Shown piece by piece: positions 12,676-47,257 of a stretch of 64,000 nt of DNA. Under the pieces are notes generated by a model. The model ran no database searches. It was not told where the DNA came from and saw nothing but the letters and a program-made list of their open reading frames with translations. Source of the stretch: an uncultured Smithella sp. (GTDB lineage: Bacteria; Desulfobacterota; Syntrophia; Syntrophales; Smithellaceae); assembly GCA_964525155.1 (NCBI GenBank), contig CAZGDK010000001.1:5283-69282 (forward strand), read 5' to 3'. Position 1 is the stretch's first letter, and every line of letters starts with the position of its first letter. The translations under genes and the position numbers were made by a program.

Positions 12676-12685
12676 TCCGGACGAG

Positions 12686-12718: not shown

Positions 12719-12738
12719 CCGGGTGAAAAGGTCAATGC

Positions 12739-13476
12739 TCAGTTGGACGTTACTGAGTAGCTGTTCATCTGGAAATTCAGTCCACCGCTCGAAGAGGTAA
12801 TTTCCCACCCTAACTGCACTTTATTGACGGTTACGTCGCCGAACCATCCTTTATTTTTAATCCAGGCGCAGATGGCTCTGATGTCCACCGTGCCGGATGT
12901 GGTGTTGCTCGTGCGCACAAAGGAATACACCGCATTGGAGCCATTCGACCCTTTATAGACGTTCCAGGTATGGCCGCCGATCGTCTGATTTTTATAGGCG
13001 GCAACCGGTTTTCCGCTTGCATCCCAGCTCTGGGCGATCGGTCCCACCGAACCGCGCTTGTTCATCCACAGCATGATTTCATATTTATTATTATTGCACC
13101 AGATGTCGTAAGCCGTGTTATATGATCCGGAACTGGGAACCGTGCACTTGAAACTGCTTTTCAACCGGTAAATGGCGCTGATCTTCTTATTGATGACTTT
13201 TTCGCAGTTCGGATACGATTTAATGCCGCTGGTGTTGGGGTGATTGGCCCAGACGCCCCAGTTGCTGTAGGAATTGGCCCAGATGCTCTGGGCGCCCGCA
13301 CCGCTGCCCCAGATGTTGTTGTAAAGCGTGTACCCGCCGTTGGTCCAGGTAGCCCACTTAGCCGACGACGACCAGACGGCCTTAACGTCCATGTTTTCGT
13401 TGGCCATGTTGATGCTTGACTGATGAAATACCGCAAAGGCCAATGCGACCAGCAATACAACAGCAAACCTTTTCAT
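12739..13476 (-). CDS. Secreted glycoside hydrolase family 12 (endo-beta-1,4-glucanase/xyloglucanase-like)
   Basis: It has its own signal peptide MKRFAVVLLVALAFAVF, preceded by GGGAGGG 9 nt upstream of the ATG at 13476. GH12 blocks are present: WATWTNGGYTLYNNIWG, IKSYPN, AYDIW, YEIMLWMNKRGSVGPIA (nucleophile Glu), VYSFVRTSNTTSGTVDI, and QLGWEITSSSG (acid/base Glu). It aligns closely with Trichoderma/Streptomyces Cel12-type sequences from memory. Confidence 0.85.
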   Translation of the reverse strand: MKRFAVVLLVALAFAVFHQSSINMANENMDVKAVWSSSAKWATWTNGGYTLYNNIWGSGAGAQSIWANSYSNWGVWANHPNTSGIKSYPNCEKVINKKISAIYRLKSSFKCTVPSSGSYNTAYDIWCNNNKYEIMLWMNKRGSVGPIAQSWDASGKPVAAYKNQTIGGHTWNVYKGSNGSNAVYSFVRTSNTTSGTVDIRAICAWIKNKGWFGDVTVNKVQLGWEITSSSGGLNFQMNSYSVTSN

Positions 13477-14034
13477 AAAGAATAACCCTCCCATCATGGA
13501 TTGATTGCCAACGCCCAGTCCCGCGGACGTAACTTCTTTATTAAACGGGATGTTGCCCCCAAGCTCCAGCGCCCAGTACCCTTCATGATGGGCGGCCCCC
13601 ATCTCCGTATACTGGCCGTCCATCATATTTTTACAGTGGCTCTCGGAATTTTTCCATCCCCGGATGACGTCGTAAACCGAAGAGCTTCCCCGCCCGATAT
13701 TTTCTCCCACAACGGAACCGGGATACCCCAGCGCCGCCGCCCTTTGAACCGGAACGCTGCCATCCGGCCCGATGTGTTCAAAATACGAGTTGCGCTGCAT
13801 GTCTCTGGCATGGAACCTTGCGGCTTTCTCCAGGGTCACATTCCAGGAAAGCTCGCTCACGGGCGGCATCACGTCCCGGCCGCAGCGCCCACCCTCGCGT
13901 CTGAACTTATTGACTTCACCGAGCATCAACGCTGAAATCTTTTGATCATCCGGGTTTTTCTTTTGATCACACCCGGTCGTGGTCGCCACGACGGCCAATA
14001 AAAAAATCAAGACGAATAATTTAAACCGCCGCAT
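13477..14034 (-). CDS. CAP/SCP (YkwD-like) domain lipoprotein; the frame runs without a stop into the GH12 gene
   Basis: A lipobox is present (LLAVVATTTGC). CAP blocks are present: LSWNVTLEKAARFHARDMQRNSYFEH, GENIGRG, VIRGWKNSESHCKNMM, YTEMGAA. No in-frame stop lies between the CAP domain end (~aa 160) and the GH12 signal peptide, so the track shows one 431-aa ORF (12739..14034). Confidence 0.7.
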
Positions 14035-14048
14035 CGCCGGATGATTTA

Positions 14049-14381
14049 CTAAAACACGTAGGCCGGTTTTGCGTTGACAGCCGTATCCATTTTAAAGGAC
14101 AGCACATTTGCATTCACTTCCGAGATTAATGTAAACTCGGTTGAAATTTGATTCAGATTCATGACAAAATACGCACCGGCGCCTTTTCTGACGATATAAG
14201 CGCCCTCATAGAGATTTTCCTCTCCCAGGTGCGTATCCACAACCCAGCGTGTCTGTCCGTTGTCCGACACTCTCGGCATGATGGTGCAATCTTCAAAGGG
14301 ACACAATTCCTTTATCTCCCACTTCCAAACCGCTACCGGCGTTTTTGGAAACAAATTAATGATCTGTCCTATTGGTCTCAT
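14049..14381 (-). CDS. Hypothetical 110-aa protein (no recognisable domain, no signal peptide)
   Basis: The ORF is tightly packed: its ATG overlaps the stop of the upstream 39-aa ORF (ATGA), and its stop is 14 nt before the CAP gene start. Confidence 0.55.
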   Translation of the reverse strand: MRPIGQIINLFPKTPVAVWKWEIKELCPFEDCTIMPRVSDNGQTRWVVDTHLGEENLYEGAYIVRKGAGAYFVMNLNQISTEFTLISEVNANVLSFKMDTAVNAKPAYVF

Positions 14382-14497
14382 AACTTAGCAACCTCCATAA
14401 GCAACATCGACATATCCTCGGCAAATTGAATCAGCATCCGGCTCAGTTCGATATTGTGATTTTCAACAGCACGCATGATTTCGAATAATTCTTCCAT
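14378..14497 (-). CDS. Small 39-aa helical protein, paralog of the N-terminal half of the 75-aa ORF upstream (not in ORF track)
   Basis: Manual translation gives MEELFEIMRAVENHNIELSRMLIQFAEDMSMLLMEVAKL*. It aligns without gaps to MENVMEMMTAVKDYNLEICKGMNTLTRDMAKLHFEAVEQ of ORF 14548..14775 (11/39 identical, many conservative). Its stop overlaps the next start. Confidence 0.4.
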   Translation of the reverse strand: MEELFEIMRAVENHNIELSRMLIQFAEDMSMLLMEVAKL

Positions 14498-14547
14498 GGC
14501 TTCTCATCCATCTTCGAACGTTAAATGTCCGCTGTGTCCAATCCTTG

Positions 14548-14775
14548 TTAAAGCGGCATGGCGCAGGTCAATCCTTTTTCCGCGTAATCACAGGCATCCT
14601 TTTTTGCGGTTTCGGAACGTTTCTGAAAAACCACCTGCTCCACAGCTTCAAAATGCAATTTGGCCATATCCCGGGTAAGGGTATTCATACCTTTGCAAAT
14701 TTCGAGATTGTAATCTTTTACAGCAGTCATCATTTCCATTACGTTTTCCATTTTTTCCACCATTTCCATGAACAT
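14548..14775 (-). CDS. Small 75-aa Met/Glu-rich helical protein, first gene of the minus-strand accessory operon
   Basis: This is a track ORF with several alternative Met starts (MFMEMVEKMENVMEMM). It is paralogous to the 39-aa ORF downstream. The C-terminal tail has two Cys (KDACDYAEKGLTCAMPL). Confidence 0.5.
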   Translation of the reverse strand: MFMEMVEKMENVMEMMTAVKDYNLEICKGMNTLTRDMAKLHFEAVEQVVFQKRSETAKKDACDYAEKGLTCAMPL

Positions 14776-14876
14776 TGAGCTTCAGCTTCCGTATACCACT
14801 CCAACATACTCTTACCCGGGATACCTAACCTTGAACTCCCCTAATCAGAATAACGCCCCCTCCGACATACATCCCT

Positions 14877-14893
14877 TACAACATGCATGCCAA
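14877..14893 (-). promoter_or_regulatory. Candidate sigma-54 (-24/-12) promoter for the small-protein/CAP/GH12 operon
   Basis: The minus strand reads TTGGCATGCATGTTGTA, which compares with YTGGCACGrNNNTTGCW. GG to -12 spacing is correct, but the -12 element is GT instead of GC. It lies about 100 nt upstream of the ATG at 14775 and downstream of an AT-rich stretch and a palindromic repeat cluster. Confidence 0.35.
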
Positions 14894-14950
14894 TTTTCCA
14901 TAAACACGTATCATATTGAATATTATAGATATTTATTAAACACAGGCCGA

Positions 14951-15027
14951 TGGGACACTCGGAGTGTCCCATGTCCCAAGACACATCTGTCCCAAAGTAA
15001 AACAAAGTGAGACGAGGCGTGGGACAC
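14951..15027. promoter_or_regulatory. Cluster of five TGGGACA/TGTCCCA heptamers including a perfect 10-1-10 palindrome (putative activator binding site/UAS)
   Basis: TGGGACACTC-g-GAGTGTCCCA occupies 14951..14971. Further copies are TGTCCCA at 14972 and 14988 and TGGGACA at 15020. The cluster is intergenic, between the anti-sigma stop (15041) and the small-protein operon. Confidence 0.45.
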
Positions 15028-15040
15028 TTCCCAAAAAGGA

Positions 15041-16150
15041 TTATTCTAAGTGTTTGATTTCCAAGGTGATATAGACATTCCGCCCCTCGCTGTCCCGAGG
15101 ACGGACGTTTTCCTGCACCTGTCCGATCTTTTTTACCGTAGACAGGAAATTCTCTAAATATTTTGAGTTCATTTCAATCCGAAGGCGCATGGTTCCATGT
15201 GACGCCTGCCGGGACAGTATCCTGGCCTCGTTTGCGGCCAGCCATTTTTCAATATGGGACAGTGCCGCGGAAACATCCGCCGCTTTCAGCACCATATCCG
15301 GGGGCCGCGGACCGGCAACCGATGCCGCCATGGACCGGGGGGCGGCCGTCTTAGCCAATTCCTTCTTTTTCACGCTGCCTTCAGCCAAAAGGGCTTCGTT
15401 TTTCCGTTCCCGATCCGCCAGGGCGGACTTCACTTCCTGAGGCATCGCCCCAACTGAAGGAGGAGCCTCGGGTTGTGCGATCATCCGTCCTTCGGGCCCT
15501 GCGTCGTGAGCGGGCACGCGATCTTCTTTCCGATTCGCCGCCTCCCCGGCGCGGCCGGCATCCTTTTCGAAAACGGACTGAGCCTTGATGCCGGGCTCTG
15601 TTTTTTGCCGGGCTCCGGCGGTTTCAGCCATCCCTTTTCGCGGTTCCTGATCGCGGCGAATCTCTTCGCGCACAATAACCTTTTTATCCGGAGCGGCGGG
15701 CGCGGAAACGGCAGGGACCTCGGGCCGTCGCGAAGGCAACGCCTGATCCCGGCTGATTTCAACAGACGGCGATCTCATACCCGGTACAATTTTGCCGGCC
15801 TCTTCATCCCCCGAACGGTAGATATACACGGCCAAAACCGCGATGACGAGCGTGGCCATGACCTGAAGAGGAATTTTGATACGAAGTGGATAAAACCATT
15901 TTTGGGCCAGAGTTTTCTTTTCGGCTTCTTTGCGCACTTCGGCCATAATTTTCTGCTGAAACCACGGCGGCTCCAAAACGTCGGGAAGCCGCCGCACCAG
16001 CCGCCCCGCTTTTTGCAGATACGCCCGTTCCTTGCGGCATGACGCGCAGGCGGCCAGATGCTCTTCCACATCGTGTTTTTCCGCGTCGGACAAGGCCCCT
16101 TCCGAATCCAGAAGCGGCAGCAGATTTTCGATGTCCCGGCACTTTTTCAT
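15041..16150 (-). CDS. Anti-sigma factor (zf-HC2 type) with one TM segment and a charged/Pro-rich periplasmic region
   Basis: The N-terminus HDVEEHLAACASCRKE is the H-x3-C-x2-C anti-sigma zinc motif. A TM helix LQVMATLVIAVLAVYIY is present. Its start overlaps the sigma gene stop (ATGA). Confidence 0.8.
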   Translation of the reverse strand: MKKCRDIENLLPLLDSEGALSDAEKHDVEEHLAACASCRKERAYLQKAGRLVRRLPDVLEPPWFQQKIMAEVRKEAEKKTLAQKWFYPLRIKIPLQVMATLVIAVLAVYIYRSGDEEAGKIVPGMRSPSVEISRDQALPSRRPEVPAVSAPAAPDKKVIVREEIRRDQEPRKGMAETAGARQKTEPGIKAQSVFEKDAGRAGEAANRKEDRVPAHDAGPEGRMIAQPEAPPSVGAMPQEVKSALADRERKNEALLAEGSVKKKELAKTAAPRSMAASVAGPRPPDMVLKAADVSAALSHIEKWLAANEARILSRQASHGTMRLRIEMNSKYLENFLSTVKKIGQVQENVRPRDSEGRNVYITLEIKHLE

Positions 16151-16764
16151 AGCTCACCGATCACTTTTTTCAGACACTCCTTCATCGCCTGCCGGGCGCG
16201 CGACAGGCGGGACTTCACCGTTCCGTCGGGAATCCGCAAAACCTCCCGAATCTCATCGTAGGACAGCCCCTGAATGTCGCACAACACCAGCACGTCGCGA
16301 TAATCAACGGCCAGCGTGTTGAGACACGCCTGGATTTGCGTTCCCAGTTCCCGGCGCTCCAGCTGCCGCGCCGGATCGCTCTCATCGGACACCGCAAGGC
16401 AGACGGCGCATCCGGCCTCTCCGTCCGCGTCGACAAGCGGCGTCCCTTCCCGGCGCATCAGGGTTTGACGCAGTTTCAACCGGTTTTTCGCCAGGTTCAG
16501 GACAATCCGGTACAGCCAGGTGGAAAATTTCGCTTCGCCCTTGAAGGACGCGATGGAGCGAAACGCAGCCAGAAACGCTTCCTGGACGACGTCGCACGCC
16601 TCGTCATAATCGCCCAGCATCCGGCAGGCAATGTTGAGCGCCTTTTGCGAATGCCTGGCGACCAGCACGGCAAACGCCTCGGTGTCCCCCTTCCGGCACG
16701 CCAAAACGAAGTCCAGATCGTCTTGGGCTTCCGGTGTTTTCGGGTTCTCTATGATCTTAGACAT
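16147..16764 (-). CDS. ECF-type RNA polymerase sigma-70 family factor
   Basis: Region 2 is present (DVVQEAFLAAFRSIASFKGEAKFSTWLYRIVLN), as is region 4 (RDVLVLCDIQGLSYDEIREVLRIPDGTVKSRLSRAR). Confidence 0.9.
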   Translation of the reverse strand: MSKIIENPKTPEAQDDLDFVLACRKGDTEAFAVLVARHSQKALNIACRMLGDYDEACDVVQEAFLAAFRSIASFKGEAKFSTWLYRIVLNLAKNRLKLRQTLMRREGTPLVDADGEAGCAVCLAVSDESDPARQLERRELGTQIQACLNTLAVDYRDVLVLCDIQGLSYDEIREVLRIPDGTVKSRLSRARQAMKECLKKVIGEL

Positions 16765-16855
16765 CCCAAACCATGTTTTTGTTCCCCAGATGTTTCAAAT
16801 TGCATGACGACCGGTGACGGCGCGAGGCGAAGATGAACCACCCGCCGCCGGAGGA

Positions 16856-17563
16856 TTACGGTTCTCCAATCTGATAGCGCGAAATATACCCGTCAAGAAT
16901 ATTGTTGAAGAAAAATCCCGTATAGAAAGAAGAGGCCAAAGGAGATGCGTCCGTAACAGTCGCCATCAGATTATTGTCGACGTAGGCGCTGAGCGTCGCG
17001 GCGCTGTCGCTGTTTGTGATCAGCTTAAACGTGTAGGTGTGATAGTCGGTCATGGCGGAGCTCACGGACCAGTCCGCCGATTTGAGAATGGAAAACATGT
17101 CGCTTAATTTGCAGATATGTATTTTTCCGTTTGCGCCGTCAAAGATCAGGCTATAGCAGGAGCTCAAGTCGCTTGACGCCCGCAGATAAAAACCGTAATT
17201 GCCGCCTGTTTCGGCCATGGAAACAATTTTCATTTTGCCGGACACGCTGACATTTCCCGATCCGCTGTAATTGGCGTTGAGCAGATAGGATGAATCCGCC
17301 GCCGACGCGTTGAAACGCGCCGCCTTATCGTCCGATTCCGATTCGATGGTCCAGCCCGACTCGCTGCCCTTGATCACGGCCCACGGGGTTTGCGGAAAAG
17401 TTTCGTAATCGGTGAAGTCGTCTGTAAGCACGGACGCGGAGTCTGAATCCGTAGCCGACGAGTCGTCCAGCGGACCGCACCCGCAAAGGGTTGCCAGAAA
17501 GATTGCCGCCACGACAAAAAAGAAAAATCTTTTTCCGATAATCCCCGCCGACTGTTTCATCAA
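16856..17563 (-). CDS. Lipoprotein with concanavalin/LamG-like jelly-roll features
   Basis: A signal peptide and lipobox are present (FLATLCGC). The sequence is beta-rich, with W..I.....W and YGFYLRAS.....YSLIFDG patterns. It lies upstream of, and co-directional with, the ECF sigma gene. Confidence 0.6.
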   Translation of the reverse strand: MMKQSAGIIGKRFFFFVVAAIFLATLCGCGPLDDSSATDSDSASVLTDDFTDYETFPQTPWAVIKGSESGWTIESESDDKAARFNASAADSSYLLNANYSGSGNVSVSGKMKIVSMAETGGNYGFYLRASSDLSSCYSLIFDGANGKIHICKLSDMFSILKSADWSVSSAMTDYHTYTFKLITNSDSAATLSAYVDNNLMATVTDASPLASSFYTGFFFNNILDGYISRYQIGEP

Positions 17564-17774
17564 AACCGTCCTCCCTCAATGCGCCTTCTCAACAAGAGCG
17601 ACCCCCGCCTGCCGCCTCCGGCCGCCTTCCGCGCCCTTGCCCGATGATTTCCATGTCCTGCCGTGAAAAACCACAAATTCAATAACATGTCAATACGATT
17701 AACAGTTTTTTACCTGTTGCAATTTTCGCCAAAAGGCATGATATGTTTCGACAGTTTGCCGCATTAAAGACGGG

Positions 17775-19397
17775 ATGCCGCATCCGGCGTCCGTCAACGG
17801 AGAAGACATCGAGATGATTGATTTTAAAACATTTTATGGATTATCGGAAAATCCCTTCGACGCCGCATCCGACGCCCGATTCTTTTTCCCCTCCGAAAGC
17901 CACCGTGAAGCCCTGGCGTCATTGCAGTATGGAATAACCTACCGGAAAGGCTTCATGCTGATTCTGGGCGCAGCCGGCAGCGGGAAAACCATGCTGATTG
18001 AACGCCTGATCAGCGTATGCGCCCGGACTACGCGCATCATTTTCTTTCCCCACAGCCAGGTTCCCTTTCCGAAAATGCTTGCCGTCATACTCGAGCAGAT
18101 GAATCTGACGGCGGCCGCCCAAACCAAGGGGGCCATGATGCACAGTCTGTATTACGGATTGATGGAATGCCAGAAGCGCGATGAGACGGTCGTTTTGGTG
18201 ATGGACCAGGCGGAAAAAATTCCGCTCGAGGTCCTCGAAGAAGTGCGCCTGCTGGCAAATCTCGAAACCGGCGCGTCCAAGCTGCTCCAGATCGTGCTGG
18301 TCGGAAGGCCGGAGCTTGGCCGGAAACTCCAATCCAGGCGGGTCCGTCAAATTGTACAGCGCATCGCCATCCGCGGCGGAATCTCCCTGTTAGCACCTCA
18401 AGAATCAAGGCAATACATCGACCACCGGCTGGGCGTCGCGGGCGGCACGTCCGGAATTTTTGCCGAAGACGCCCTGGCCATGATCTGCAAATCCGCGAAA
18501 GGATGTCCCCGGACGCTCAACACCCTGGGCCATAATGCCCTGATGCTGGGCGGCTGTCTTTCCGAAAAGCCGATAACCGCATCCACGGTAAAGAAAATTC
18601 GCGGGGGAAAAAATCCTTTGACCGAGACGGAAGCCAAAGGCCTGGCGTCCGGTTTTTCCGCGCGCCTGTCCGGAAAAATCGTCCTGACGTTTTTCGCGCT
18701 TGCGGGCCTGCTGATGCTGATCGCTTTCGGGAAAGCCTCTCTATCCGCGCTTCTCAACGCCCTGAAACCCCATCCTCGCGCTCTTGTCAGCGCCGACTCG
18801 GAGAAAGCCGCCGCCCCGGAAAGCCGCGCGTTTTCCATCCCGGATCATACCCAACATCCGCCCGCCCCTTTCATCGCCGCCGATGCGCCGCCCGCAGCGG
18901 GAAAGCCCGCTTCCGAAAATATCGCACCGAATGCCGCGCCGGCAAAGCCGCATCCGGGCATACGCATCCGGACCGTAGTCGATGTGCAAAAGGGAAGCAG
19001 CCTGTCCGTATTCGCCTTCCGGAATTACAAAATGACCAACGAAACGCTCGTGGATCATATCATCAAGGCCAATCCGGAAATCGCCAATCCCGGCCTGCTT
19101 GAGCCGGGCCAGAAAATCCGGATTCCGGAAATTACGGAAGCCTTGCTGATCATCCGCTCTCCGGACAATCTGTATCACGTTCATTTGAGAACATTTGAGG
19201 ATTTGAAAGGCGCGCAACACTACCGGCGCATCGCCGCGTCATGGGGACAACCGACCGAGACGTCACCCTGGCCCATATCGGAAAAAGAAACCTGGCACAG
19301 GGTTCTGGCCGGGCCTTTCGCAAATTACAGCGAAGCAGCCAAGGCTCTCGAAAGCATGAAGAAGAAGGGATTTACCGTGATTCCTTTTAATCCGTAA
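17775..19397 (+). CDS. ExeA/GspA-like AAA ATPase fused to TM segment, LysM and SPOR peptidoglycan-binding domains
   Basis: The N-terminus FYGLSENPF...FFPSESHREALASLQYGI...GFMLILGAAGSGKT (Walker A) and VLVMDQAE (Walker B) match ExeA-type ATPases. A TM helix IVLTFFALAGLLMLIAF follows. The LysM-like part is VQKGSSLSVFAFRNY...ANPEIANPGLLEPGQKIRIP. The SPOR-like end is YHVHLRTF...WHRVLAGPFANYSEAAKALESMKKKGF. An alternative start is the ATG at 17814. Confidence 0.8.
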   Translation: MPHPASVNGEDIEMIDFKTFYGLSENPFDAASDARFFFPSESHREALASLQYGITYRKGFMLILGAAGSGKTMLIERLISVCARTTRIIFFPHSQVPFPKMLAVILEQMNLTAAAQTKGAMMHSLYYGLMECQKRDETVVLVMDQAEKIPLEVLEEVRLLANLETGASKLLQIVLVGRPELGRKLQSRRVRQIVQRIAIRGGISLLAPQESRQYIDHRLGVAGGTSGIFAEDALAMICKSAKGCPRTLNTLGHNALMLGGCLSEKPITASTVKKIRGGKNPLTETEAKGLASGFSARLSGKIVLTFFALAGLLMLIAFGKASLSALLNALKPHPRALVSADSEKAAAPESRAFSIPDHTQHPPAPFIAADAPPAAGKPASENIAPNAAPAKPHPGIRIRTVVDVQKGSSLSVFAFRNYKMTNETLVDHIIKANPEIANPGLLEPGQKIRIPEITEALLIIRSPDNLYHVHLRTFEDLKGAQHYRRIAASWGQPTETSPWPISEKETWHRVLAGPFANYSEAAKALESMKKKGFTVIPFNP

Positions 19398-20709
19398 CGC
19401 CGCTTTCCGGCACAAGCTCCTGACGCGCGGCCGCGCCGGCTTTCCAGGCCGGCGCAAAAACGCTGAAAAACAGAATGTAAAAAACGAATATCAGGCTGAA
19501 GATGTAGCGGCGTTCGGCGTGAAAAAAATAGGCCATGACAAATGTCAGGAAAACAAAACTCCAGAAGACCCACAAAATTTTCAGTTTCGGACGGGTCAAA
19601 CGCCTGGCCCAGACAAACGGCCAGACGAAAAACGAAAAAAACGCCGTCACGGTGATCACACCGGTAAAGACCTTCATGAAAAACAACACGCCGCTTGCGG
19701 ACAGCACCACGGGGAAGAGCTGCCCCACAAACAGAAACTTGATTTTCACAAAATTTTCCAAAAGCACGCCTTCCCGGTGTTTGAGACAGTCCATTCCCAG
19801 GGCGTAAAAATAGTCCTGGTTATACATCGGCTCGGTGGTGTTAAAGACATTCATACCAAAATAATCTTCGTAGCCGGGCGGCCCGATGACGTAATGCCAG
19901 CCCTCAAAGCGCGAATTGACTTCACTGGCCTTGCACTGGCCCAGAAAGAAATTCAGCCCGCCGTTGGCGCCCAGCCCCCGGACGGCTCCGCCGGAAATAC
20001 GGTTATTTTCAAAACTCACCGCGGCAAACACCAGCGTGAACGCAATGCCGAAGGCGACGGCGTTGGCCCAGGCCCACCCTTTGCGGTAATAAGCGAAAAC
20101 ATAGAAATTCAGGGGAATGACAAACAAAACAAACGCGGGCCGGACACCCACGGAAATGCCGAACAGGAGCCCCGCGGCAAACAGGTATTTCTTTTGGGTC
20201 GGATGGCAAAACAGCAACGACAGCGCGATGATAAAAAGGGGCAGCGCGATGTTTTCGGAAAACACGAATGCGTAAAGATAAACGACCGGATAGGTGAAAA
20301 TGTATAAAAGCGTGACGGCCACGCTCAACTTTTCATTTTTAAAAATCTTGACGAGCAGTTTGTACAGAAAAGCAATGCTCACGCTTCCCAGGATAATCTG
20401 CAGCAGGAGAACAATCTCCAGATTGAAGTTGGACAACCCCAGAAGGCGAATGGGATAAAAAAGCCAGGATAAAATGATGTGATAAAGCGGCGGCCAGATG
20501 ACCCATTGATCCACGGAATGGGTATCGCCATCAAATCTTCTGAGCGCCCTCTCCCAGTAGCCGCCGGCGTCACTGTCGTCGTTATACGTCCAGTATTCGG
20601 TAAAAAAAGACACGTAAATGAAATATACAAGGAAGGCCAGCGCGGCCAGAAACCACTCCGGGTGCGCTTTGACGGTATTGACAAGCTTGTCTCTGATGGA
20701 TTTGATCAT
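19387..20709 (-). CDS. GT-C fold polytopic membrane glycosyltransferase (ArnT/PMT, GT39/GT83-like), short paralog
   Basis: 440 aa with more than 10 hydrophobic helices. The first-loop acidic motif is YNDDSDAGGYWERALRRFDG..WPPLYHI. It shares GLGANGGLNFF and N-terminal blocks with the two 630-aa genes upstream. Confidence 0.7.
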   Translation of the reverse strand: MIKSIRDKLVNTVKAHPEWFLAALAFLVYFIYVSFFTEYWTYNDDSDAGGYWERALRRFDGDTHSVDQWVIWPPLYHIILSWLFYPIRLLGLSNFNLEIVLLLQIILGSVSIAFLYKLLVKIFKNEKLSVAVTLLYIFTYPVVYLYAFVFSENIALPLFIIALSLLFCHPTQKKYLFAAGLLFGISVGVRPAFVLFVIPLNFYVFAYYRKGWAWANAVAFGIAFTLVFAAVSFENNRISGGAVRGLGANGGLNFFLGQCKASEVNSRFEGWHYVIGPPGYEDYFGMNVFNTTEPMYNQDYFYALGMDCLKHREGVLLENFVKIKFLFVGQLFPVVLSASGVLFFMKVFTGVITVTAFFSFFVWPFVWARRLTRPKLKILWVFWSFVFLTFVMAYFFHAERRYIFSLIFVFYILFFSVFAPAWKAGAAARQELVPESGVTD

Positions 20710-21012
20710 ATTTCCGGAGACAACCCGACGGTTATCAGAGCCTCCGTTTTCCCGCGAGAGAAGATCATTTCCAGCAATGGGAATAGAGACGCCTTTTGTT
20801 GTTTGTCAAGAAATTCCATTTTCTTTCTTCCGTGCCCGACGGCGACGAACAATACAAGCCGTTTCATTTTTTGTGCCGGTTGACGTCAACTGCTTTTCAA
20901 CCGATTTAAAGATCGGCCTGCTTACCTGCTATTGATTTCCCTGTCAACATAAAAAACTGTAAATTAATGTAATGTCCCATGCCGGGGGCCAGCGCGTTTT
21001 TGACAGAACGCA

Positions 21013-21744
21013 TCAAAAGCGGAAACGCAGACGCACAATCATGCCGAGGTATTTACGCCCGCGGCGGATAAACCCCCACAAATTGGTTGCCGTCTTGGAT
21101 TCCCCGCGCCGGCGCGGCGTCAAAACATACGGCACTTCCACGACGCGGGCCCGGCGCTCTTTGATCAAATAGACGATAAGTGCGATGAAGTATTCGCCGT
21201 AATCTCCGCTAAGATCGTAGCCCTGGAGAAATTCCCGTTTCAAAACAATGAAACCGCTGGACCAGTCGCGAAAACGGCAGCCCAGCGCCCACCCGCCGAG
21301 AATGCTGAGCGTCTTACTCAGCATCAGCTGAGTCGCCAGAAGAAAATTGACCGCGCGCGCATCGCCGCCGCCCGGCACATAGCGCGATCCCACCGCCACA
21401 TCGGCGCCCTCATCAATCGCCTGCAGCAGCTCGGGAATTTTTTTAGGCGGCATGGACAGGTCCACATCCATCCACATCAATAATCTTCCCCGTCCCATTT
21501 TCAGTCCGTCGTTGATCGCGCTGGTCAGGCCGCGCACATTGACGCGTCGCAGCAGCCGGACGTTTGAGCGCGAAGCGGCAAAAGCTTCCACGGCCTCCCA
21601 GGTTTTATCGGGGGAATCATCATCCACCACAATGGCTTCGTAGGGAATGGCCACTATCTTTTCCAGCTCGGACAAAAGCAGGATGATGTTGTCCTTTTCG
21701 TTGTATGTCGGCAAAATAATGCTCAACGCAATTTCGGCATTCAT
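21013..21744 (-). CDS. GT2 polyprenol-phosphate sugar synthase (Dpm1/ArnC/GtrB-like)
   Basis: GT-A motifs are present: LSIILPTYNEKDNI, IVVDDDSPDKT, LMWMDVDLSMPP, VAVGSRY. Its start overlaps the upstream GT-C stop. Confidence 0.85.
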   Translation of the reverse strand: MNAEIALSIILPTYNEKDNIILLLSELEKIVAIPYEAIVVDDDSPDKTWEAVEAFAASRSNVRLLRRVNVRGLTSAINDGLKMGRGRLLMWMDVDLSMPPKKIPELLQAIDEGADVAVGSRYVPGGGDARAVNFLLATQLMLSKTLSILGGWALGCRFRDWSSGFIVLKREFLQGYDLSGDYGEYFIALIVYLIKERRARVVEVPYVLTPRRRGESKTATNLWGFIRRGRKYLGMIVRLRFRF

Positions 21745-23654
21745 GGCTGCCCGCCCTCCTTTGGAAGAGTAAACCGTACCCGCTCATCGCTTACCCCGAC
21801 CATGTTTCGATGACGCCATCCGGAAGCGTCTTCGTAGCTGTAATTGACGGCAAAGCCGCCGTCGAGTTCGATAAAGTCAAACGCCATCTCCAGAGTATGC
21901 CGGCCCGGATCAAGGGTGATTTCAACGGATTTTTCAAGAGCGCCGCCGGGATCCTCTTGATTGGCGCTCAAATCATAAGGATTCTTTTCGGCCAGCAGGG
22001 TTTTGCCGTTGATAAGCATCTCAAACGGCCAGACGCTGTAAACATCGAACCTCAGCGCCAGCGGCTCTCGACCGGCAATGTCCAGGCGGGTTATCGCCCA
22101 AACACGGGTTGGAACGCTCGGTTTATAACCCGTATCGGCATGCGCAATGACCCCCTTGCGGGCGAACGGAAAAAACAGGCGGCCGACATCCTGAACGGTC
22201 GACGCGCCGGCGGGAGCGCTATCCAGGCTCCGGGCGTGCATTTTCATGCTCGGTGAATGTTGGGGCTCCAATGCGACAACGACGGCCGCGGAAACGCCGA
22301 TGATCAGCCCCATTGTCAGGCCATAGGGCAAAAGAACTTTTCTCCAGCGCCGCCAGTCACCGTAAAACAGTTCGGCCAGTTTGAAAAAAAGGAGATAAAA
22401 CGCAAAAATGATCGCATACGAATAACGCGGCTCCCCGGTAAACAGATAGCTGACCAGAAGTGTCAGACCAATCACCGTCGTCAAAAACCCGCAAAGCGGC
22501 TTTTCTTCGGACGAAAGCCCCCGCCACATCCACAGATAAAGCCAAAGCGACACAAACATGAGAAATTTAAATCCATCCCAAAGCGGCCGGAAAAAATCAT
22601 ATCCGGGAATGGGCATGGCAGGCAGCATCGTCGCGAAAAACAGGTCTTTGACGTGCGCAAAATTTTTGAGAAGCCTTTCCGGGTGATGTTTGATGAAATT
22701 CCAGCCCAATTGATAATAATAACCCTGATCATAGAACGGAACGTTGGTTTTAAAATACCCTTGTTCCGGCTTCTGGGACAGGGCCGGAACCACAATGAAA
22801 TGGTTTAAGCCCTCATGCGACAGTTCAATGCGATGGTAACGGGCATTGGCGATAAAAAAATCCAAGCCGCCGTTGGCGGAAAGCCCCGTCACCCTGCCCT
22901 GCGAGATGCGTGAGACTTCCAGACCGGCGCCCAGAATCAGCGCAAAAAACAGGGTGGAAAAAACGGCGGCGCGCGCCACAAACGCAAGGCTGAAACGCCG
23001 GCGGATCAATAAATAAACGACGAAGGCCAGGCCATAAGGGGCAAGGGACGGACGAATGATCGAGGCAAAGGCAAACAGCAGGGCCGAAAGAATCAGCCAC
23101 ATCCAACCCTCACGGCGGTAAATCAGGGAAACGGCTATCACCAGCAGGGGAATCGCTAGATTTTCCGAAAGCAGAAAGGCGTTGAAATACCAGGCCGGAA
23201 AGCCAAAGCCATAAAGCAGCAACGCCGCCAGCCCCCACGGGGTCTGTTGAAACCAGCGCACAGCCACGCGCTGCAGTGCATAAACCGACACGGCATGAGC
23301 CAGGATGTTCATGGCCAGCACGGTTTCGAGTTTGATCAAGCCAGAAAGACCCAGCCATTTCAACACGCGGAAAAACTCCGCCAGAAAAATATGATAGCCG
23401 GGCGGCCAGGCAAAGTACTGGGAAATATCGTACGGGTTTCCATCGAGCCTTTGCAGCGCCCGTTCCCAGAAACCGTGCATATCGCTGTACAGGCACGACG
23501 GATAGTCCGTTAAGAGAAAAACATACAGCGCGATGATCAGCAATGAACTGAACGCAAGAAAAAACCCGAAGAGTCTGGTTTGATAAAATGTACGAAAATC
23601 TTGGATGCCGGACCGGCCGGTCTGCCGGCGGCGCTCACTGGTTCTGGACCACAT
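21741..23654 (-). CDS. GT-C membrane glycosyltransferase with C-terminal PA14-like beta-sandwich domain (paralog A)
   Basis: 637 aa. The N-terminal ~470 aa are polytopic, with YSDMHGFWERALQRLDG..WPPGYHIFLAEFF and GLSANGGLDFFIAN. The soluble C-terminal ~160 aa end in ITLDPGRHTLEMAFDFIELDGGFAVNYSYEDASGW. Confidence 0.7.
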   Translation of the reverse strand: MWSRTSERRRQTGRSGIQDFRTFYQTRLFGFFLAFSSLLIIALYVFLLTDYPSCLYSDMHGFWERALQRLDGNPYDISQYFAWPPGYHIFLAEFFRVLKWLGLSGLIKLETVLAMNILAHAVSVYALQRVAVRWFQQTPWGLAALLLYGFGFPAWYFNAFLLSENLAIPLLVIAVSLIYRREGWMWLILSALLFAFASIIRPSLAPYGLAFVVYLLIRRRFSLAFVARAAVFSTLFFALILGAGLEVSRISQGRVTGLSANGGLDFFIANARYHRIELSHEGLNHFIVVPALSQKPEQGYFKTNVPFYDQGYYYQLGWNFIKHHPERLLKNFAHVKDLFFATMLPAMPIPGYDFFRPLWDGFKFLMFVSLWLYLWMWRGLSSEEKPLCGFLTTVIGLTLLVSYLFTGEPRYSYAIIFAFYLLFFKLAELFYGDWRRWRKVLLPYGLTMGLIIGVSAAVVVALEPQHSPSMKMHARSLDSAPAGASTVQDVGRLFFPFARKGVIAHADTGYKPSVPTRVWAITRLDIAGREPLALRFDVYSVWPFEMLINGKTLLAEKNPYDLSANQEDPGGALEKSVEITLDPGRHTLEMAFDFIELDGGFAVNYSYEDASGWRHRNMVGVSDERVRFTLPKEGGQP

Positions 23655-23803
23655 CCTTTAGCCCCCGTTGCCGCATCTGTTTTTTCGTGAATAGCAGATT
23701 TCGGGGAGCCTGCAAATAAAAAAATCTCTAATAACCGCACCGGCCGTTTTTGAAAGCGCCGCTTTTGCGCCCGCGGCAATCCAAGCAAGATGCACGGGAC
23801 GGA

Positions 23804-25693
23804 TCACGAATCGCTTTCGTTTGCCTGGGGCAGGCTGAAGCGAAGCCGCGTATCGCTTACCCCCAGGGTCTTTCGCTGCAGCCAGCCTTCGGCATCCAGA
23901 TAATTGTATTTAATGGCAAATCCCCCGTCCCTCATGGGATAGTCGAAGGCAACCTCCAGCGCATAGTGGCCTGGATAGAGGATGGTTGCCGCTTTGAATT
24001 CAATCGCATAAAAGGGATTTGTTTCAACCGGCAGCTTTTTGCCGTTTATCAGAATTTCAAACGGCCAGTCCGTAATGACCTCGAACGTCACGGGCAGCGG
24101 CCCCGACCCTTCGACGTCCAAGCGGCTTTGCGTAAGAACCCGGGCGGGAGAGCCAAGCTTATATCCCAAGTCGGCATGCGAGACGGATTCTTTCATCCGG
24201 AACGGAAAAAACAACCGGCCAACCTGATGTTCCGACGCAGACACGCTCTGCGGTTGTTCCGATTGGGCCTGTATCTCCATCCTCATGCTCGGCGGGTAGA
24301 CGGGCTTCATCCAATAGGCAACGGCAACCGCGGCGACAACGATGCCCCCCATCATCAGAGCGTAAGGACGCCAGACCTTTTTCCAGCGCCCCCACTCAGA
24401 AGTAAACTGCTCGGCCAGCTTGAAAAAAAGAAGGTAGAAAACAAAGATGATCTGATAGGTATAACGCGGCTCTCCCGTAAACAGATAACTGACCAGGATC
24501 GTCACGCCGATCACGGTCATCGAAAAAGCGAACAGCGGTTTTGCTTCGGACGAAAGGCCCCGCCACATCCAGATATACAACCCCAGAGACAAAAACATGA
24601 TAAATTTAAACACGTCCCACAGCGGGCGCAAAAAGAAATATCCGGGCGTGTCCTGGCTGGGAAGCATGGGCGAAAAAAACAGGTCCCGGATGTGTTCAAC
24701 ATTCTTGAGAAGTCTTGCCGGATCGTGCTTTATGAAATTCCAACCCATTTTAAAATAATAGTCCTGTTCGTAAAACGGAATGTCCGTTTTGAAGTACCCG
24801 TTTTCCGGATTGTCGGACAGAGCCGGCACCACAATGACATGATGCCATCCCTCATAATGCAGGCCGACGCTGTTGTAGCGCGAATTGGCGATAAAAAAAT
24901 CCAGGCCGCCGTTGGCGGAAAGTCCCGTGACTTTGCCCTGGGATATGCGCGACACTTCCAGACCGGCTGCAAAAACCAGCGCAAAGAAAATGGCGGAAAA
25001 GACGGCCGCGCGAACCAGAAACGCGCGGTTTAAACGCCAACGCACCAGAAAGTAAACAACGAACGCCAGCCCTAAAGGCGCCAATGAAGGCCGAAAAATA
25101 GCAGTAAGAGAAAACAGCAACGCGGCGGCGATAAGCGACGGCCAGCCCTCCCGGCAGTACAAAAGAGCAATGGCCAGAATCAGCAGCGGGACCGCCAGAT
25201 TTCCGGAAAGCAAAAACACATTGAAATAAAGGGCGGGAAAACCGAAGGCGTATAAAAGCAGCGCCGCGAGCATCCACCGCGGACTTTGAAACCAGCGCGT
25301 CAGGATGCGCTGCATCGCATACACCGATGCGGCATACGCCAGCATGTTCATGAACAAGACCGTTTCAACTTTAATCAGACCTTCCAGCCCCAGCCAGCGC
25401 AGGACGCGAAAAAATTCAGCCAGAAAAATATGGTAGCCGGGCGGCCAGGCCAGGTACTGAGTCAGATTATACGTGTCGCCGTTGAGCCGCTCCATCGCGC
25501 GCAGCCAGAACCCCAGCATGTCGCTGTATAAATACTCCCGGAAGGCGGAAAAAAAGAAACCATAGAAAAAAATTGCGGCCAGCGAAACAAGCGCCAGACA
25601 GACGCCGAAGGCCCGCGTTTGAACAAAGTCTCCAAAATGATGAGCGCCAGACCAATGATTTTGCCCGCGCTCCTTTTCTTTTTTTTCGCTCAT
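23804..25693 (-). CDS. GT-C membrane glycosyltransferase with C-terminal PA14-like domain (paralog B, tandem duplicate)
   Basis: 629 aa, collinear with paralog A over its full length (YSDMLGFWLRAMERLNG..WPPGYHIFLAEFFRVLRWLGLEGLIK; GLSANGGLDFFIAN; YPGHYALEVAFDYPMRDGGFAIKYNYLDAEGW). Confidence 0.7.
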   Translation of the reverse strand: MSEKKEKERGQNHWSGAHHFGDFVQTRAFGVCLALVSLAAIFFYGFFFSAFREYLYSDMLGFWLRAMERLNGDTYNLTQYLAWPPGYHIFLAEFFRVLRWLGLEGLIKVETVLFMNMLAYAASVYAMQRILTRWFQSPRWMLAALLLYAFGFPALYFNVFLLSGNLAVPLLILAIALLYCREGWPSLIAAALLFSLTAIFRPSLAPLGLAFVVYFLVRWRLNRAFLVRAAVFSAIFFALVFAAGLEVSRISQGKVTGLSANGGLDFFIANSRYNSVGLHYEGWHHVIVVPALSDNPENGYFKTDIPFYEQDYYFKMGWNFIKHDPARLLKNVEHIRDLFFSPMLPSQDTPGYFFLRPLWDVFKFIMFLSLGLYIWMWRGLSSEAKPLFAFSMTVIGVTILVSYLFTGEPRYTYQIIFVFYLLFFKLAEQFTSEWGRWKKVWRPYALMMGGIVVAAVAVAYWMKPVYPPSMRMEIQAQSEQPQSVSASEHQVGRLFFPFRMKESVSHADLGYKLGSPARVLTQSRLDVEGSGPLPVTFEVITDWPFEILINGKKLPVETNPFYAIEFKAATILYPGHYALEVAFDYPMRDGGFAIKYNYLDAEGWLQRKTLGVSDTRLRFSLPQANESDS

Positions 25694-25753
25694 TATTTAA
25701 TTTCCCGCCCCCTGTCCCATGGAATATTTGCGGCATTCATGGCGTTTTACTCC

Positions 25754-26566
25754 TCATAAAAGCCGCAGGCAAAAACAGGCGCCCCAGGTGTCCGTCCCCA
25801 GCGGCCTGGCCGATTGCCACTCTTCGGCGCATTCCGTTGCAAAACCTGAACCCTGCGCCAAAAGGTCAATTTCCGGCTTGAAAAAATACCGCATGGCGTG
25901 CGTTTCCGTAAGTTCCGCAACAGCCTTTGTTTCCCGGTCGCGCACAAACACCGTGTAATGAACATCCACCCGGTTTTCATTGGGATGCAAAACCGGCTCG
26001 GCCAGGCGGGTGATTTCGGTTTGCTCATCCGCCATGCGCTTGACGCGGAGCTCGGGGCGCTCGGTCAGCACCGCAGGACCGTACCAGACGTCGAAAATAA
26101 AAATGCCGCCCGGCTTCAGATGATGTCTGGCCGTTGCAAAGGCCGCCTGCACATCCTCGTTGGCGGTCTGATAACTGATGACATGAAACAGGGAAATCAC
26201 CGCGTCAAAACGCTCCGGCAGCCTTGCCGTGCGGATATCGCCCAGGGAAAAAGAAAGGCGCGGCACAGGGGCGTCCTGCTGCATGGCGGACGCAAGCTCC
26301 AGAGACCGGGCCAGCATCTCGGGGCTGCGCTCGATCCCGCGCACACTGAATCCGCGGTCCACCAAAAGCCGTGCATGTTTGCCGGTGCCGGACCCGAGCT
26401 CCAGAATGGAGTGGGCCTTGGAATGAAGTCGCCGGATCAGCCCGGCAACATAGTCGGCTTCTTCGGAATAATCCTTGTCCCGGTACAAAAGATCATAGTA
26501 GCGGGCGTATTCATTAAACACGCCGGTTGTTTTTGCCAATTCAGATTCCTTTGAATGATTCTTCAA
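25754..26566 (-). CDS. Class I SAM-dependent methyltransferase, TylM1/DesVI-like (putative amino-sugar N-methyltransferase)
   Basis: The sequence YARYYDLLYRDKDYSEEADYVAGLI...ILELGSGTGKHARLLVDRGFSVRGIERSPEML carries the SAM motif I. The C-terminal part, with VDVHYTVFV...ETHAMRYF, resembles the sugar N,N-dimethyltransferase family. The specific substrate is inference from context. Confidence 0.8.
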   Translation of the reverse strand: MKNHSKESELAKTTGVFNEYARYYDLLYRDKDYSEEADYVAGLIRRLHSKAHSILELGSGTGKHARLLVDRGFSVRGIERSPEMLARSLELASAMQQDAPVPRLSFSLGDIRTARLPERFDAVISLFHVISYQTANEDVQAAFATARHHLKPGGIFIFDVWYGPAVLTERPELRVKRMADEQTEITRLAEPVLHPNENRVDVHYTVFVRDRETKAVAELTETHAMRYFFKPEIDLLAQGSGFATECAEEWQSARPLGTDTWGACFCLRLL

Positions 26567-26624
26567 ATTGATAACCCACCTTATTGGTTCAGGATTTTTT
26601 GTGATGTCGTCTGTATTAAAAATT

Positions 26625-27791
26625 TTAACCCGACGCCAGAACGGACTTCACGGCATCGGCCACCTGTTCGATTTGCGTTTCGGTGATCGTAAGTCCGCTG
26701 GGCAGGTAAAGGCCCTGACGGGCGATGCGCTCGGCAATGGGATACCTTTCGTTTTGAAAAAGGCCCATGGCGTGAAACACCGGCTGCTCATGCATGCCCA
26801 GAAAAAAGGGCCGCGTCTCAACGCCTTTTTGTTTCAGTTTTGCGGCAAACGCTTCCGCCGTAAATCCCGTGTTTTCGTCCAGGACCAGGCCGTACATCCA
26901 GTACACCTGTCTGGCCCAGGTTTCTTCGCACGGCAACTGAAGTGCGGCAATGTTTTTCAATCGCTCCGTATAAGCCCGGCCCATCCAGCGCTTTTTGGCG
27001 ACAATGTCATCCATGCGCTCCATCTGCCCCAGCCCGATGGCCGCCTGCAGATTGGTCAGACGGAAGTTATGCCCGATTTGGGTATGATAAAAGCGGCGCT
27101 GCGGTTGGAAACAGAGATTGCGCAGACTTCTTGCTTTGTCGGCGTAACCGGGATCGTTGGTCAAAATCATTCCGCCTTCGCCGGTCGTAATCAGTTTATT
27201 GGCGTAAAAACTGAAGACGCTGATGTCGCCTAAACTCCCGCAGCGCAGCCAACGCGGATTTTGCGTATCGCGCCCGCTCAGATATTCGGCGCCGTGAACT
27301 TCCGCCGCGTCTTCGATCATTTTCAAATCATATTTTCGGGCCAGCGCGAAAATCGGGTCCATATCGACCGGATGTCCGTAAATATGGACCGGCATAATGG
27401 CCTTGAGCCTGCCTTCACCCCGGCGCATTTCGGCTTCCACTTTTTCCCGCACCTGCTCCACATCCATGCACCAGGTGCGGGGATCACAGTCCACCAGCAC
27501 CGGAATGCCGCCCGCGTAAACAATCGCCTGCGCGCAGGATATAATCGTGAAGGTGGGCAAAATAATCTTGTCGCCCGGCTGAATGTCCAGACAGCCCACC
27601 GCCGCCTGAAGCGCCGTGGTCCCGTTGCTCATCGCCACGCCGTATTTCATGCCGCAGTACTTAGCCCACTTTGTTTCAAATTCCTCGATAAAGCGGCCCG
27701 CCGACGAAATCCAGCCGGTACGCAGGCATTCATTGACATATTCCATTTCTTTTTCGCCGATAACCGGTTCGTTGACAGGAATCATGGACAC
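26625..27791 (-). CDS. DegT/DnrJ/EryC1/StrS-family PLP-dependent sugar aminotransferase
   Basis: It contains SNGTTALQ, DAAEVHGA, SFYANKLITTGEGGMILTND (PLP lysine) and HNFRLTNLQAAIGLGQMER. Confidence 0.9.
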   Translation of the reverse strand: MSMIPVNEPVIGEKEMEYVNECLRTGWISSAGRFIEEFETKWAKYCGMKYGVAMSNGTTALQAAVGCLDIQPGDKIILPTFTIISCAQAIVYAGGIPVLVDCDPRTWCMDVEQVREKVEAEMRRGEGRLKAIMPVHIYGHPVDMDPIFALARKYDLKMIEDAAEVHGAEYLSGRDTQNPRWLRCGSLGDISVFSFYANKLITTGEGGMILTNDPGYADKARSLRNLCFQPQRRFYHTQIGHNFRLTNLQAAIGLGQMERMDDIVAKKRWMGRAYTERLKNIAALQLPCEETWARQVYWMYGLVLDENTGFTAEAFAAKLKQKGVETRPFFLGMHEQPVFHAMGLFQNERYPIAERIARQGLYLPSGLTITETQIEQVADAVKSVLASG

Positions 27792-28213
27792 ACCTCGTCA
27801 AAGCGCGTTTTGTCTCCGTCGCCGGCGTAGGGCCCCTGCTTGACCTCGATCATCGTGGTTTCCTCGATCATCTCCAGCGAATGACCGCCGCCGCAAAGCA
27901 AAATGACGTCGCCGGTGACGAGAATTCTGGAGTCAATGAAAACGCGCTCCGACGTAAAAAGATTCACCTTGACTTTGCCGCGCTTGATGATGAGCACTTC
28001 CTGCGTATAAAGGACCTGCCGCGCCAGAAAATTATGAACATGCGCGGCGATTTTGTGGCCCGGCGGATGCGTCATGGCGGCCAGCTGCTGAGAGAAGGTC
28101 GGTGGTGTAAAAAAATGAATGCCCGGTTCGTCAAAATCGTTGCGAATAATCAGCGCGATGGGCTCTATGCCGTGGACAACAGTCTCAATGTGCTTTTCCT
28201 TCATGATATCCAA
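27782..28213 (-). CDS. Small cupin-fold protein (candidate sugar-nucleotide ketoisomerase/epimerase, WbuC/FdtA-like by context)
   Basis: 143 aa with cupin His motifs (GHKIAAHVH ... GGGHSLE). It overlaps the aminotransferase start by 10 nt. The specific activity cannot be supported from sequence alone. Confidence 0.55.
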   Translation of the reverse strand: MDIMKEKHIETVVHGIEPIALIIRNDFDEPGIHFFTPPTFSQQLAAMTHPPGHKIAAHVHNFLARQVLYTQEVLIIKRGKVKVNLFTSERVFIDSRILVTGDVILLCGGGHSLEMIEETTMIEVKQGPYAGDGDKTRFDEVCP

Positions 28214-28317
28214 TGTCCTCCTTCATTTTCACGTCGCATTCCAAAAATCGAGAATACATATTTAAGATGGAAACCAGACTGTTTGCCATCCGATATCAAT
28301 TGTAAACAAACGTAAAG

Positions 28318-28333
28318 TGCAATATGTATACCA
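28318..28333 (-). promoter_or_regulatory. Candidate sigma-54 (-24/-12) promoter for the glycosylation cluster
   Basis: The minus strand reads TGGTATACATATTGCA, that is TGGYAY-N5-TTGCA with correct GG/GC spacing. It lies about 100 nt upstream of the cupin ATG (28213). TGGGACA repeats sit 90-130 bp further upstream, beyond an AT-rich spacer. Confidence 0.4.
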
Positions 28334-28418
28334 TAAAAAGCATAAATTTCTTATCTATTTGAAATTTTTTGGTATCCATCATAAATTAACGGCATGAAGA
28401 ATCCCGCCTACAGCATGA

Positions 28419-28460
28419 TGGGACACAACTGTCCTAATTAATGAAACATCCATGGGACAC
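28419..28460. promoter_or_regulatory. TGGGACA-N4-TGTCCTA imperfect inverted repeat plus a third TGGGACA copy (putative activator site)
   Basis: TGGGACAcaacTGTCCTA occupies 28419..28436 and CATGGGACAC occupies 28451..28460. This is the same heptamer as the 14951..15027 cluster. Confidence 0.4.
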
Positions 28461-28478
28461 GAAAGATACTCTTTGCGA

Positions 28479-30161: not shown

Positions 30162-30217
30162 GGACCTCTCATGGCTTCAAGCCCCGTTCAACCGGCTTGC
30201 AAAACCACGAAGAATTT

Positions 30218-47213: not shown

Positions 47214-47225
47214 TTAAATAGCCCC

Positions 47226-47250: not shown

Positions 47251-47257
47251 GTGTCCA

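Follow-up and report, generated by a model that had tools for sequence, protein, structure and literature searches.

The closest described counterparts of the sites analysed here are those of GlrR/QseF in Enterobacteriaceae, which have the form TGTCN10GACA and lie in three copies, together with integration host factor (IHF) sites, upstream of the sigma-54 promoters of glmY and glmZ (PMC3045617). Sigma-54 regulons are centred on the cell exterior and on exopolysaccharide, with activator sites mostly within about 100 nt of the promoter (PMC4641369), and regulons of enhancer-binding proteins have been predicted for Desulfovibrio vulgaris (PMC4641369, PMC3333781). We analysed a 64-kb stretch of DNA (the window) from an uncultured Syntrophales-like deltaproteobacterium, in which the word TGGGACA and its complement TGTCCCA recur in four intergenic gaps: gap A (14776-15040), upstream of an operon for small proteins and a CAP+GH12 fusion (operon A); gap D (28214-28478), upstream of a glycosylation cluster (operon D); and gaps B (20710-21012) and C, each with a lone half-site. 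With a confidence somewhat above even, we read the GGGACA/TGTCCC half-sites as upstream activating sequences for one putative sigma-54 enhancer-binding protein, which would probably be an NtrC-family response regulator encoded outside the window.

The locus resembles the GlrR/QseF targets in having several inverted repeats with TGTC/GACA cores at more than 60 nt from a putative -24/-12 promoter, on its upstream side, with a tract in between that may be bendable or IHF-like, a function related to the cell envelope and, possibly here as well, an overlapping sigma-70 -10 box. It differs in its longer half-site (GGGACA/TGTCCC), in its spacings of N4, N7 and N9 and never N10 (which places the sites outside the GlrR/QseF class), and in its targets, which are protein-coding operons, not small RNAs, in a Syntrophales-like deltaproteobacterium; no GlrR-type gene was identified. 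With NtrC-type activators and the D. vulgaris regulons it shares palindromic sites about 100 nt upstream of sigma-54-like promoters, genes of the cell exterior and exopolysaccharide, and the small, lineage-specific character of the regulons, whereas two of the three putative promoters have a -12 element that departs from the canonical form. The lists of activator sites of D. vulgaris contained no matching motif (one incidental GGGACA occurs in the supplement), and the motif string gave no relevant match in the literature.

The original prediction, made from the sequence of the window, rested on an exact 9-mer, TGTCCCATG, and its four copies (14965, 20973 and 25713 (+), and 28451 (-)) were confirmed by count, against an expectation of 0.43; four or more copies were reached in none of 100 shuffles. 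The argument from an expectation below one copy is sound if the 9-mer was picked beforehand and weak after the fact, because 1,894 canonical 9-mers have at least four occurrences in the window. Therefore all 8,192 7-mers were ranked by their enrichment in intergenic DNA (the 6.9% of the window outside our own gene calls). TGGGACA/TGTCCCA, with 13 copies in the window versus 5.7 expected, was first in this ranking: nine of the 13 copies are intergenic, distributed over four separate gaps (binomial p 2e-8; about 1.6e-4 when corrected for 8,192 7-mers). Two outcomes that would have spoken against the prediction, an equal frequency in coding DNA and an origin from a dispersed repeat, were thus not seen at the scale of the window, where no repeat family or longer similarity was found around the copies (the longest word common to them is an 11-mer, TCCATGGGACA, in gaps C and D). 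Composition does not explain the enrichment, because the word is GC-rich and its host gaps are AT-rich. All five heptamers predicted for 14951..15027 were found (14951-15026), and two of the three predicted for 28419..28460 are exact (28419 and 28453), the third having one mismatch (TGTCCTA, 28430-28436). The palindrome described as 10-1-10 proved to be a perfect 11-1-11. The exact 9-mer is probably not the functional unit; what is conserved is the half-site GGGACA/TGTCCC arranged in palindromes, with cATGGGACAc as its extended form.

The footprint in gap A was obtained by aligning it with the orthologous gaps of three contigs from related Syntrophales (L010, L011 and L013), the sigma factors of which are 69-71% identical to that of the window. 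The central palindrome of gap A lies within a block, TGTCTCACgTTGTcTTACTTTGGGACAgATgTGTCTTg, that is nearly invariant in the three orthologs. The window and L011, which differ in the spacer, both have a perfect copy of the proximal palindrome, TGGGACA-N7-TGTCCCA, and those of L010 and L013 are degenerate; the extra TGGGACA copy is confined to the window lineage (the orthologs have TTGAATTG or TTGAAGTA in its place), and the distal half-site is not conserved in the orthologs. Gap A contains five motif copies in the window versus one to three in the orthologs. Further downstream, TGGCA and TTG of a TGGCA-N6-rTTG(t/a)AAG element are invariant in all four sequences while the spacer varies; the element agrees with the sigma-54 consensus TGGCACG-N4-TTGCW in spacing and at most positions, the -12 part being TTGT or TTGA and not TTGC. 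The AT-rich tract between the sites and the element (77-83% AT) contains a conserved TATAAT-like box and a TCAATATGAT block and might bend the DNA or bind IHF; one-mismatch matches to the IHF consensus WATCARNNNNTTR were detected in L010 and L013 only, at the same position.

A weighted consensus scan for TGGCACG-N4-TTGCW (threshold 16.5) found only three intergenic matches in the whole window, in gap A, in gap D and at 63168-63183; two of the three are located in the two gaps that contain clusters of the motif, where they follow these clusters downstream and have the orientation of the genes. Counted from where the GACA core starts to the leading G of the -24 GG, the distance amounted to 100 nt in gap A (14991 to 14891), 101 nt in gap D (28433 to 28332) and 99 nt in gap B (20976 to 20877), and the paired TGTC core is 92 nt from the GG in gap A versus 93 nt in gap D. 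The cores of gaps A and D share a 13-mer pattern, GGACAG(a/t)TGTGTC, and the sequence from core to promoter is otherwise unrelated among gaps A, B and D. From background match frequencies, the chance of such an agreement in spacing is about 7e-4 for gap D and about 4e-3 for gap B, where the element is weak (score 15.5 of 20.5, background 0.0012 per position, p about 0.004 for a distance of 99-101). The sites of gaps A and D together span about 65-135 nt upstream of the -24 GG, with their cores at 66-135 nt, in keeping with enhancers of this class, which are repeated, mostly dyad-symmetric sites about 70-150 nt upstream of a -24/-12 promoter. GG and GC 10 nt apart, with the C of the -12 element, are present in gap D; gaps A and B keep only the GG and the G of the -12 element.

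The glycosylation cluster has one close ortholog, L017, the cupin protein of which is 90% identical to that of the window; the gene order is the same, with a single 645-aa membrane protein, and the cluster is located elsewhere, after surE. The upstream gap of L017 cannot be aligned with gap D, yet it holds TGTCCC, TGTCCCA-caac-GGGACA and a GG-N10-GC element, TGGCATATATTGTGCT, in which the C of the -12 part is again present. The -24/-12 element is kept at the four gap-A promoters while its spacer varies, and in L017 despite flanks that cannot be aligned. Between the sites and the element lies an AT-rich tract in gap A, gap D and L017 alike (77-90% AT). In gap B, the motif and the weak element occur together in the window and are missing together from L017, which we counted in favour of the sigma-54 reading.

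The sequences show that the motif is enriched between genes and conserved, and that -24/-12-like elements stand at a common spacing to the sites; that transcription depends on sigma-54, what kind of protein binds and as what oligomer, that the DNA loops and that each operon is transcribed as one unit is inferred. The activator would bind the palindromic pairs and the flanking half-sites, which are spread from about 65 to about 135 nt upstream of the -24 GG; the AT-rich, possibly IHF-bent tract would bring it to the sigma-54 RNA polymerase at the -24/-12 element; and ATP hydrolysis would then lead to promoter opening. The small-protein/CAP-GH12 operon and the glycosylation island would be co-activated in this way, and perhaps the last GT-C gene separately. 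The regulator shared by the CAP/GH12 operon and the glycosylation cluster that the original prediction had proposed is favoured by gaps A and D and, less strongly, by gap B, but not by gap C, where the copy has no promoter partner. Conservation of the motif upstream of orthologous operons was borne out for gap A (L010, L011, L013) and for L017 and not for the copies of gaps B and C, which are absent from L017. The suggestion of a sigma-54 activator gained from the equal distances to -24/-12 elements in three gaps, but no gene for such an activator was found in the window or in any of the retrieved loci. The statement that the window has no obvious cognate regulator gene passed over an extracytoplasmic function (ECF) sigma factor with its anti-sigma factor, MraZ and a LuxR-type response regulator, which are encoded there, although none of them fits the motif.

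Several observations weigh against sigma-54 enhancer sites. With respect to the promoters, the -12 element lacks its near-invariant C both in gap A, where all four orthologs have TTGT or TTGA, and in gap B, where it is ATGA; the TATAAT-like box that is conserved in gap A would be compatible with a sigma-70 promoter; and the sigma-54-like matches show no overall enrichment (47 in 128,000 strand-positions, with about three expected in intergenic DNA and three seen). With respect to the sites, the spacing of half-sites is mixed, with GACA-N4-TGTC in gaps A and D, GACA-N7-TGTC in gap A, and TGTC-N9-GACA in L017 and in the gap-A orthologs L010, L011 and L013 (the window has TGTT there). The sites of L017 are 13 bp further from the -24 element than those of gap A, so the geometry of sites and promoter is not strictly fixed, and a search for a promoter partner of the gap C copy found none. 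Cupin loci at 76-82% identity had neither the motif nor a -24/-12 element (in L019-L026, which have cupin homologs in other contexts, the motif was not found upstream of the cupin gene). Finally, activators of this type have an AAA+ domain with a GAFTGA loop and a C-terminal helix-turn-helix domain and are often encoded close by, but none of the GAFTGA, ESELFG and Walker-A signatures was found in the six reading frames of the window, and Sigma54_activat matched none of the 53 proteins that were compared with Pfam and nothing in the gene tables of L010-L017.

Sigma-54 itself seems to be in use in this organism, as is suggested by a canonical element, TGGCACAACCATTGCT, at 63168-63183 (+), 25 nt before a PEP-CTERM gene (63208-63837). 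This promoter was rejected as a member of the same regulon because no TGGGACA lies upstream of it, and for the same reason another activator presumably acts there. In L016, which belongs to a related genome, a different palindrome, TGTCGTTGACGCCGACA, and a strong sigma-54-like element, TGGCACGGGGAATGCA, occur at about 20003-20121 (-), the palindrome being upstream by about 103 nt; this looks like another pair of activator site and promoter with the same geometry.

Among the alternatives, the one that survives best is that an ordinary dimeric helix-turn-helix protein, acting as repressor or as class I/II activator on sigma-70 promoters, uses the sites as its operator, the likeness to -24/-12 elements being coincidental. 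The perfect 11-1-11 palindrome is typical of a dimeric operator, the TATAAT-like box follows the palindrome of gap A at about 24 nt, and both the -12 element of gap A without its C and the lack of intergenic enrichment of sigma-54-like matches would be natural here. A consensus scan, however, gave no acceptable -35 or -10 element for gaps D or B, and the sites, at 65-135 nt upstream of the -24 GG, are beyond the usual range of sigma-70 operators. Such an operator would also leave the equal spacing to GG-N10-G in three unrelated gaps unaccounted for, as well as the invariance of TGGCA...TTG in four orthologs. We consider it unlikely.

That the copies reflect chance or composition, or are remnants of a small dispersed repeat or mobile element, we regard as very improbable. 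The large number of 9-mers recurring at least four times, the lack of conservation of the B and C copies in L017 and the location of the glycosylation cluster on an inserted island are compatible with such an origin; against it stand the intergenic enrichment (p about 2e-8, first among 7-mers), the GC-rich word in AT-rich gaps, the lack of extended similarity around the copies and their conservation in orthologous promoters. A dispersed repeat of the repetitive extragenic palindrome (REP) or miniature inverted-repeat transposable element (MITE) type was rejected, no repeat family covering the sites.

Still less credit can be given to the sites serving the neighbouring ECF sigma factor and its anti-sigma factor, as promoter elements or as targets, although the pair is immediately upstream of the gap-A cluster and, wherever the small-protein gene occurs (L010, L011 and the window), adjoins it. 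Both orientations are seen among the copies, none has a -10 partner at a fixed 16-17 nt, and the eight sequences compared upstream of the sigma gene, from seven loci and the window, lack TGGGACA; for want of a directional pair of a -35 (GGAAC-like) and a -10 (CGTC- or TCTAA-like) element and of the motif upstream of its own gene, the ECF sigma factor was rejected as the regulator. In L012, L014, L015 and L016 the sigma/anti-sigma pair occurs without a small-protein gene and without a motif copy nearby (L016 has a single distant TGGGACA at 15702). Because these four pairs lack both, the motif belongs to the small-protein promoter and not to the sigma pair. The pair itself is 60-77% identical across many Syntrophales metagenome-assembled genomes (MAGs), with or without a downstream small-protein gene.

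Terminator or attenuator hairpins after the anti-sigma and radical SAM genes, i.e., a role of the palindromes in RNA, are hardly credible either: the cluster of gap D begins within about 20 nt past the upstream stop codon and that of gap A within about 70 nt, and the 11-1-11 palindrome would form a stable hairpin, but neither palindrome is followed by a U-run, the terminator scan was negative there, the arms are degenerate in the orthologs with no compensatory change, single half-sites are conserved alone and Rfam is negative for the region (nothing relevant over 12000-31000), so that a terminator hairpin was rejected for want of a U-run and of compensatory change.

MraZ, which is encoded in the window and has boxes that are likewise a short G-rich word, was also rejected as the regulator, because the TGGGACA copies are inverted and irregularly spaced, while its own boxes are direct repeats of a different word, GTGGAG. 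In the mraZ promoter region (47225-47290, -), TTGACA-N17-TATAGT is followed by three direct repeats; these, GTGGAG-N4-GTGGAA-N4-GTGGAG with a 10-bp period at 47225-47250, are the expected MraZ boxes. Eraso et al. in 2014 are said to have described MraZ boxes upstream of mraZ, as direct repeats that recur every 10 bp.

If the half-sites are sigma-54 enhancer sites, one signal-responsive activator would turn on a surface-glycosylation island as well as the operon of a secreted CAP-GH12 glycoside hydrolase, and the cATGGGACAc palindromes offer a defined DNA bait for finding it. No new mechanism would be revealed, the control element being of an ordinary bacterial kind; it would add to the known link between sigma-54 and the remodelling of the exterior of the cell, an acquired island having been placed under an existing activator.

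The genomic context bears on how such an arrangement might have arisen. A backbone of ftsQAZ, the radical SAM gene, a variable segment, the AAA_22/SPOR gene, a gene for a 231-aa protein, the sigma and anti-sigma genes, a gap and the small-protein gene is common to L010, L011 and L013. Since the radical SAM and AAA_22/SPOR genes that flank the glycosylation cluster (19387-28213) are adjacent in L010, the cluster is an insertion in the window lineage. Different inserts occupy its position in L011 and L014, so this place beside the cluster of cell-division genes is a variable hotspot. Tentatively, and with rather more doubt than belief, we propose a lineage-restricted sigma-54 regulon of uncultured Syntrophales, in which the inserted island, which encodes amino-sugar synthesis, a GT2 and GT-C transferases, might have been captured by the pre-existing activator of the small-protein/CAP-GH12 operon, with half-sites still multiplying. 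The multiplication is suggested by the surplus of copies in gap A over its orthologs and by the lone copies in gaps B and C. If this is true, the window captures the growth of a regulon in progress, with a grammar of sites (N4/N7/N9, both orientations) unlike that of a simple dimer. The coordinates of sites, promoter elements, operons and genes are collected in Table 1.

Table 1. Half-sites, palindromes, sigma-54-like elements, target operons and genes of the locus (positions in the window, except for the L017 row).
Feature	Position	Strand	Remarks
Gap A, sigma-54-like -24/-12 element TGGCATGCATGTTGTA	14877..14892	-	small-protein operon; -12 is TTGT, without consensus C
Gap A, AT-rich tract	14893..14945	-	between sites and -24 element
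Gap A, proximal perfect 11-1-11 palindrome ATGGGACACTC-G-GAGTGTCCCAT	14950..14972		TGGGACA-N7-TGTCCCA; centre ~70 nt upstream of -24 GG
Gap A, extra TGGGACA copy	14972..14978	-	window lineage only
Gap A, central palindrome TGGGACAgatgTGTCTTG	14977..14994	-	includes heptamer 14988-14994; GACA core 100 nt upstream of -24 GG
Gap A, distal half-site	15020..15026	+	TGTCCCA in gene direction; TGTC core 135 nt upstream of -24 GG
Gap B, weak sigma-54-like element CGGCACAAAAAATGAA	20863..20878	-	upstream of PMT_2/GT-C gene 19387-20709
Gap B, lone TGGGACA half-site	20973..20979	-	99 nt upstream of GG of weak -24/-12-like element
Gap C, lone TGGGACA half-site	25713..25719	-	20 nt upstream of start codon at 25693
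Gap D, sigma-54-like -24/-12 element TGGTATACATATTGCA	28318..28333	-	GG-N10-GC; ~115 nt upstream of cupin gene start
Gap D, central palindrome TAGGACAgttgTGTCCCA	28419..28436	-	sequence in gene direction
Gap D, distal half-site	28453..28459	+	TGTCCCA in gene direction; 127 nt upstream of -24 GG
L017, GG-N10-GC element TGGCATATATTGTGCT	3186-3201		position in L017
Target operon A	12739..14775	-	75-aa protein, uncalled 39-aa paralog, 110-aa protein, CAP+GH12
Target operon D	21013..28213	-	cupin, DegT, methyltransferase, two membrane proteins, GT2
CAP + GH12 fusion	12739-14034	-	
110-aa protein	14049-14381	-	
75-aa small protein	14548-14775	-	
Anti-sigma factor	15041-16150	-	zf-HC2 + DUF2275
ECF sigma factor	16147-16764	-	
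AAA_22/LysM/SPOR protein	17775-19397	+	
PMT_2-type GT-C	19387-20709	-	
GT2 glycosyltransferase	21013-21744	-	
Paralogous ~630-aa membrane proteins	21741-23654, 23804-25693	-	no Pfam match
Methyltransferase	25754-26566	-	
DegT-type aminotransferase	26625-27791	-	
Cupin-like protein	27782-28213	-	
B12-type radical SAM protein	28479-30161	-	
ftsZ, ftsA, ftsQ	from 30218	-	

The names of homologs (Smithellaceae, Syntrophus and Deltaproteobacteria MAGs) point to a Syntrophales/Smithellaceae-like organism. A metagenome scan with an alignment of the small protein returned one locus, L013, and a scan of a genome collection anchored on the AAA_22/LysM/SPOR protein returned distant enterobacterial relatives only. 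The two paralogous membrane proteins of the island, which are encoded in tandem, have a 300-nt segment that is 76% identical at the DNA level, and shorter segments are common to them and the PMT_2 gene, which suggests that all three are related.

Operon A has the same gene order in L011. Between its genes for the 75-aa and 110-aa proteins lies an uncalled open reading frame (ORF) of 39 aa, MEELFEIMRAVENHNIELSRMLIQFAEDMSMLLMEVAKL, at 14378-14497 (-), the product of which is similar to the 75-aa protein in its N-terminal half; the ORF ends in a stop codon that shares the bases ATGA with the start of the 110-aa gene, and it is conserved in L011 at 82% DNA identity. The tight packing and the overlapping stop and start codons suggest that the operon would be co-transcribed, and no intrinsic terminator was found within it. 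An inverted repeat of 18 nt (94% complementary) connects the 5' untranslated region (UTR) of the small-protein gene with its codons ~22-28 (14667-14684 / 14806-14823, -). In the RNAalifold prediction it extends to a helix of about 22 bp that encloses the ribosome-binding site and the start codon. The helix is kept in four orthologs with one compensatory pair, and on this model it may be a structure for translational control.

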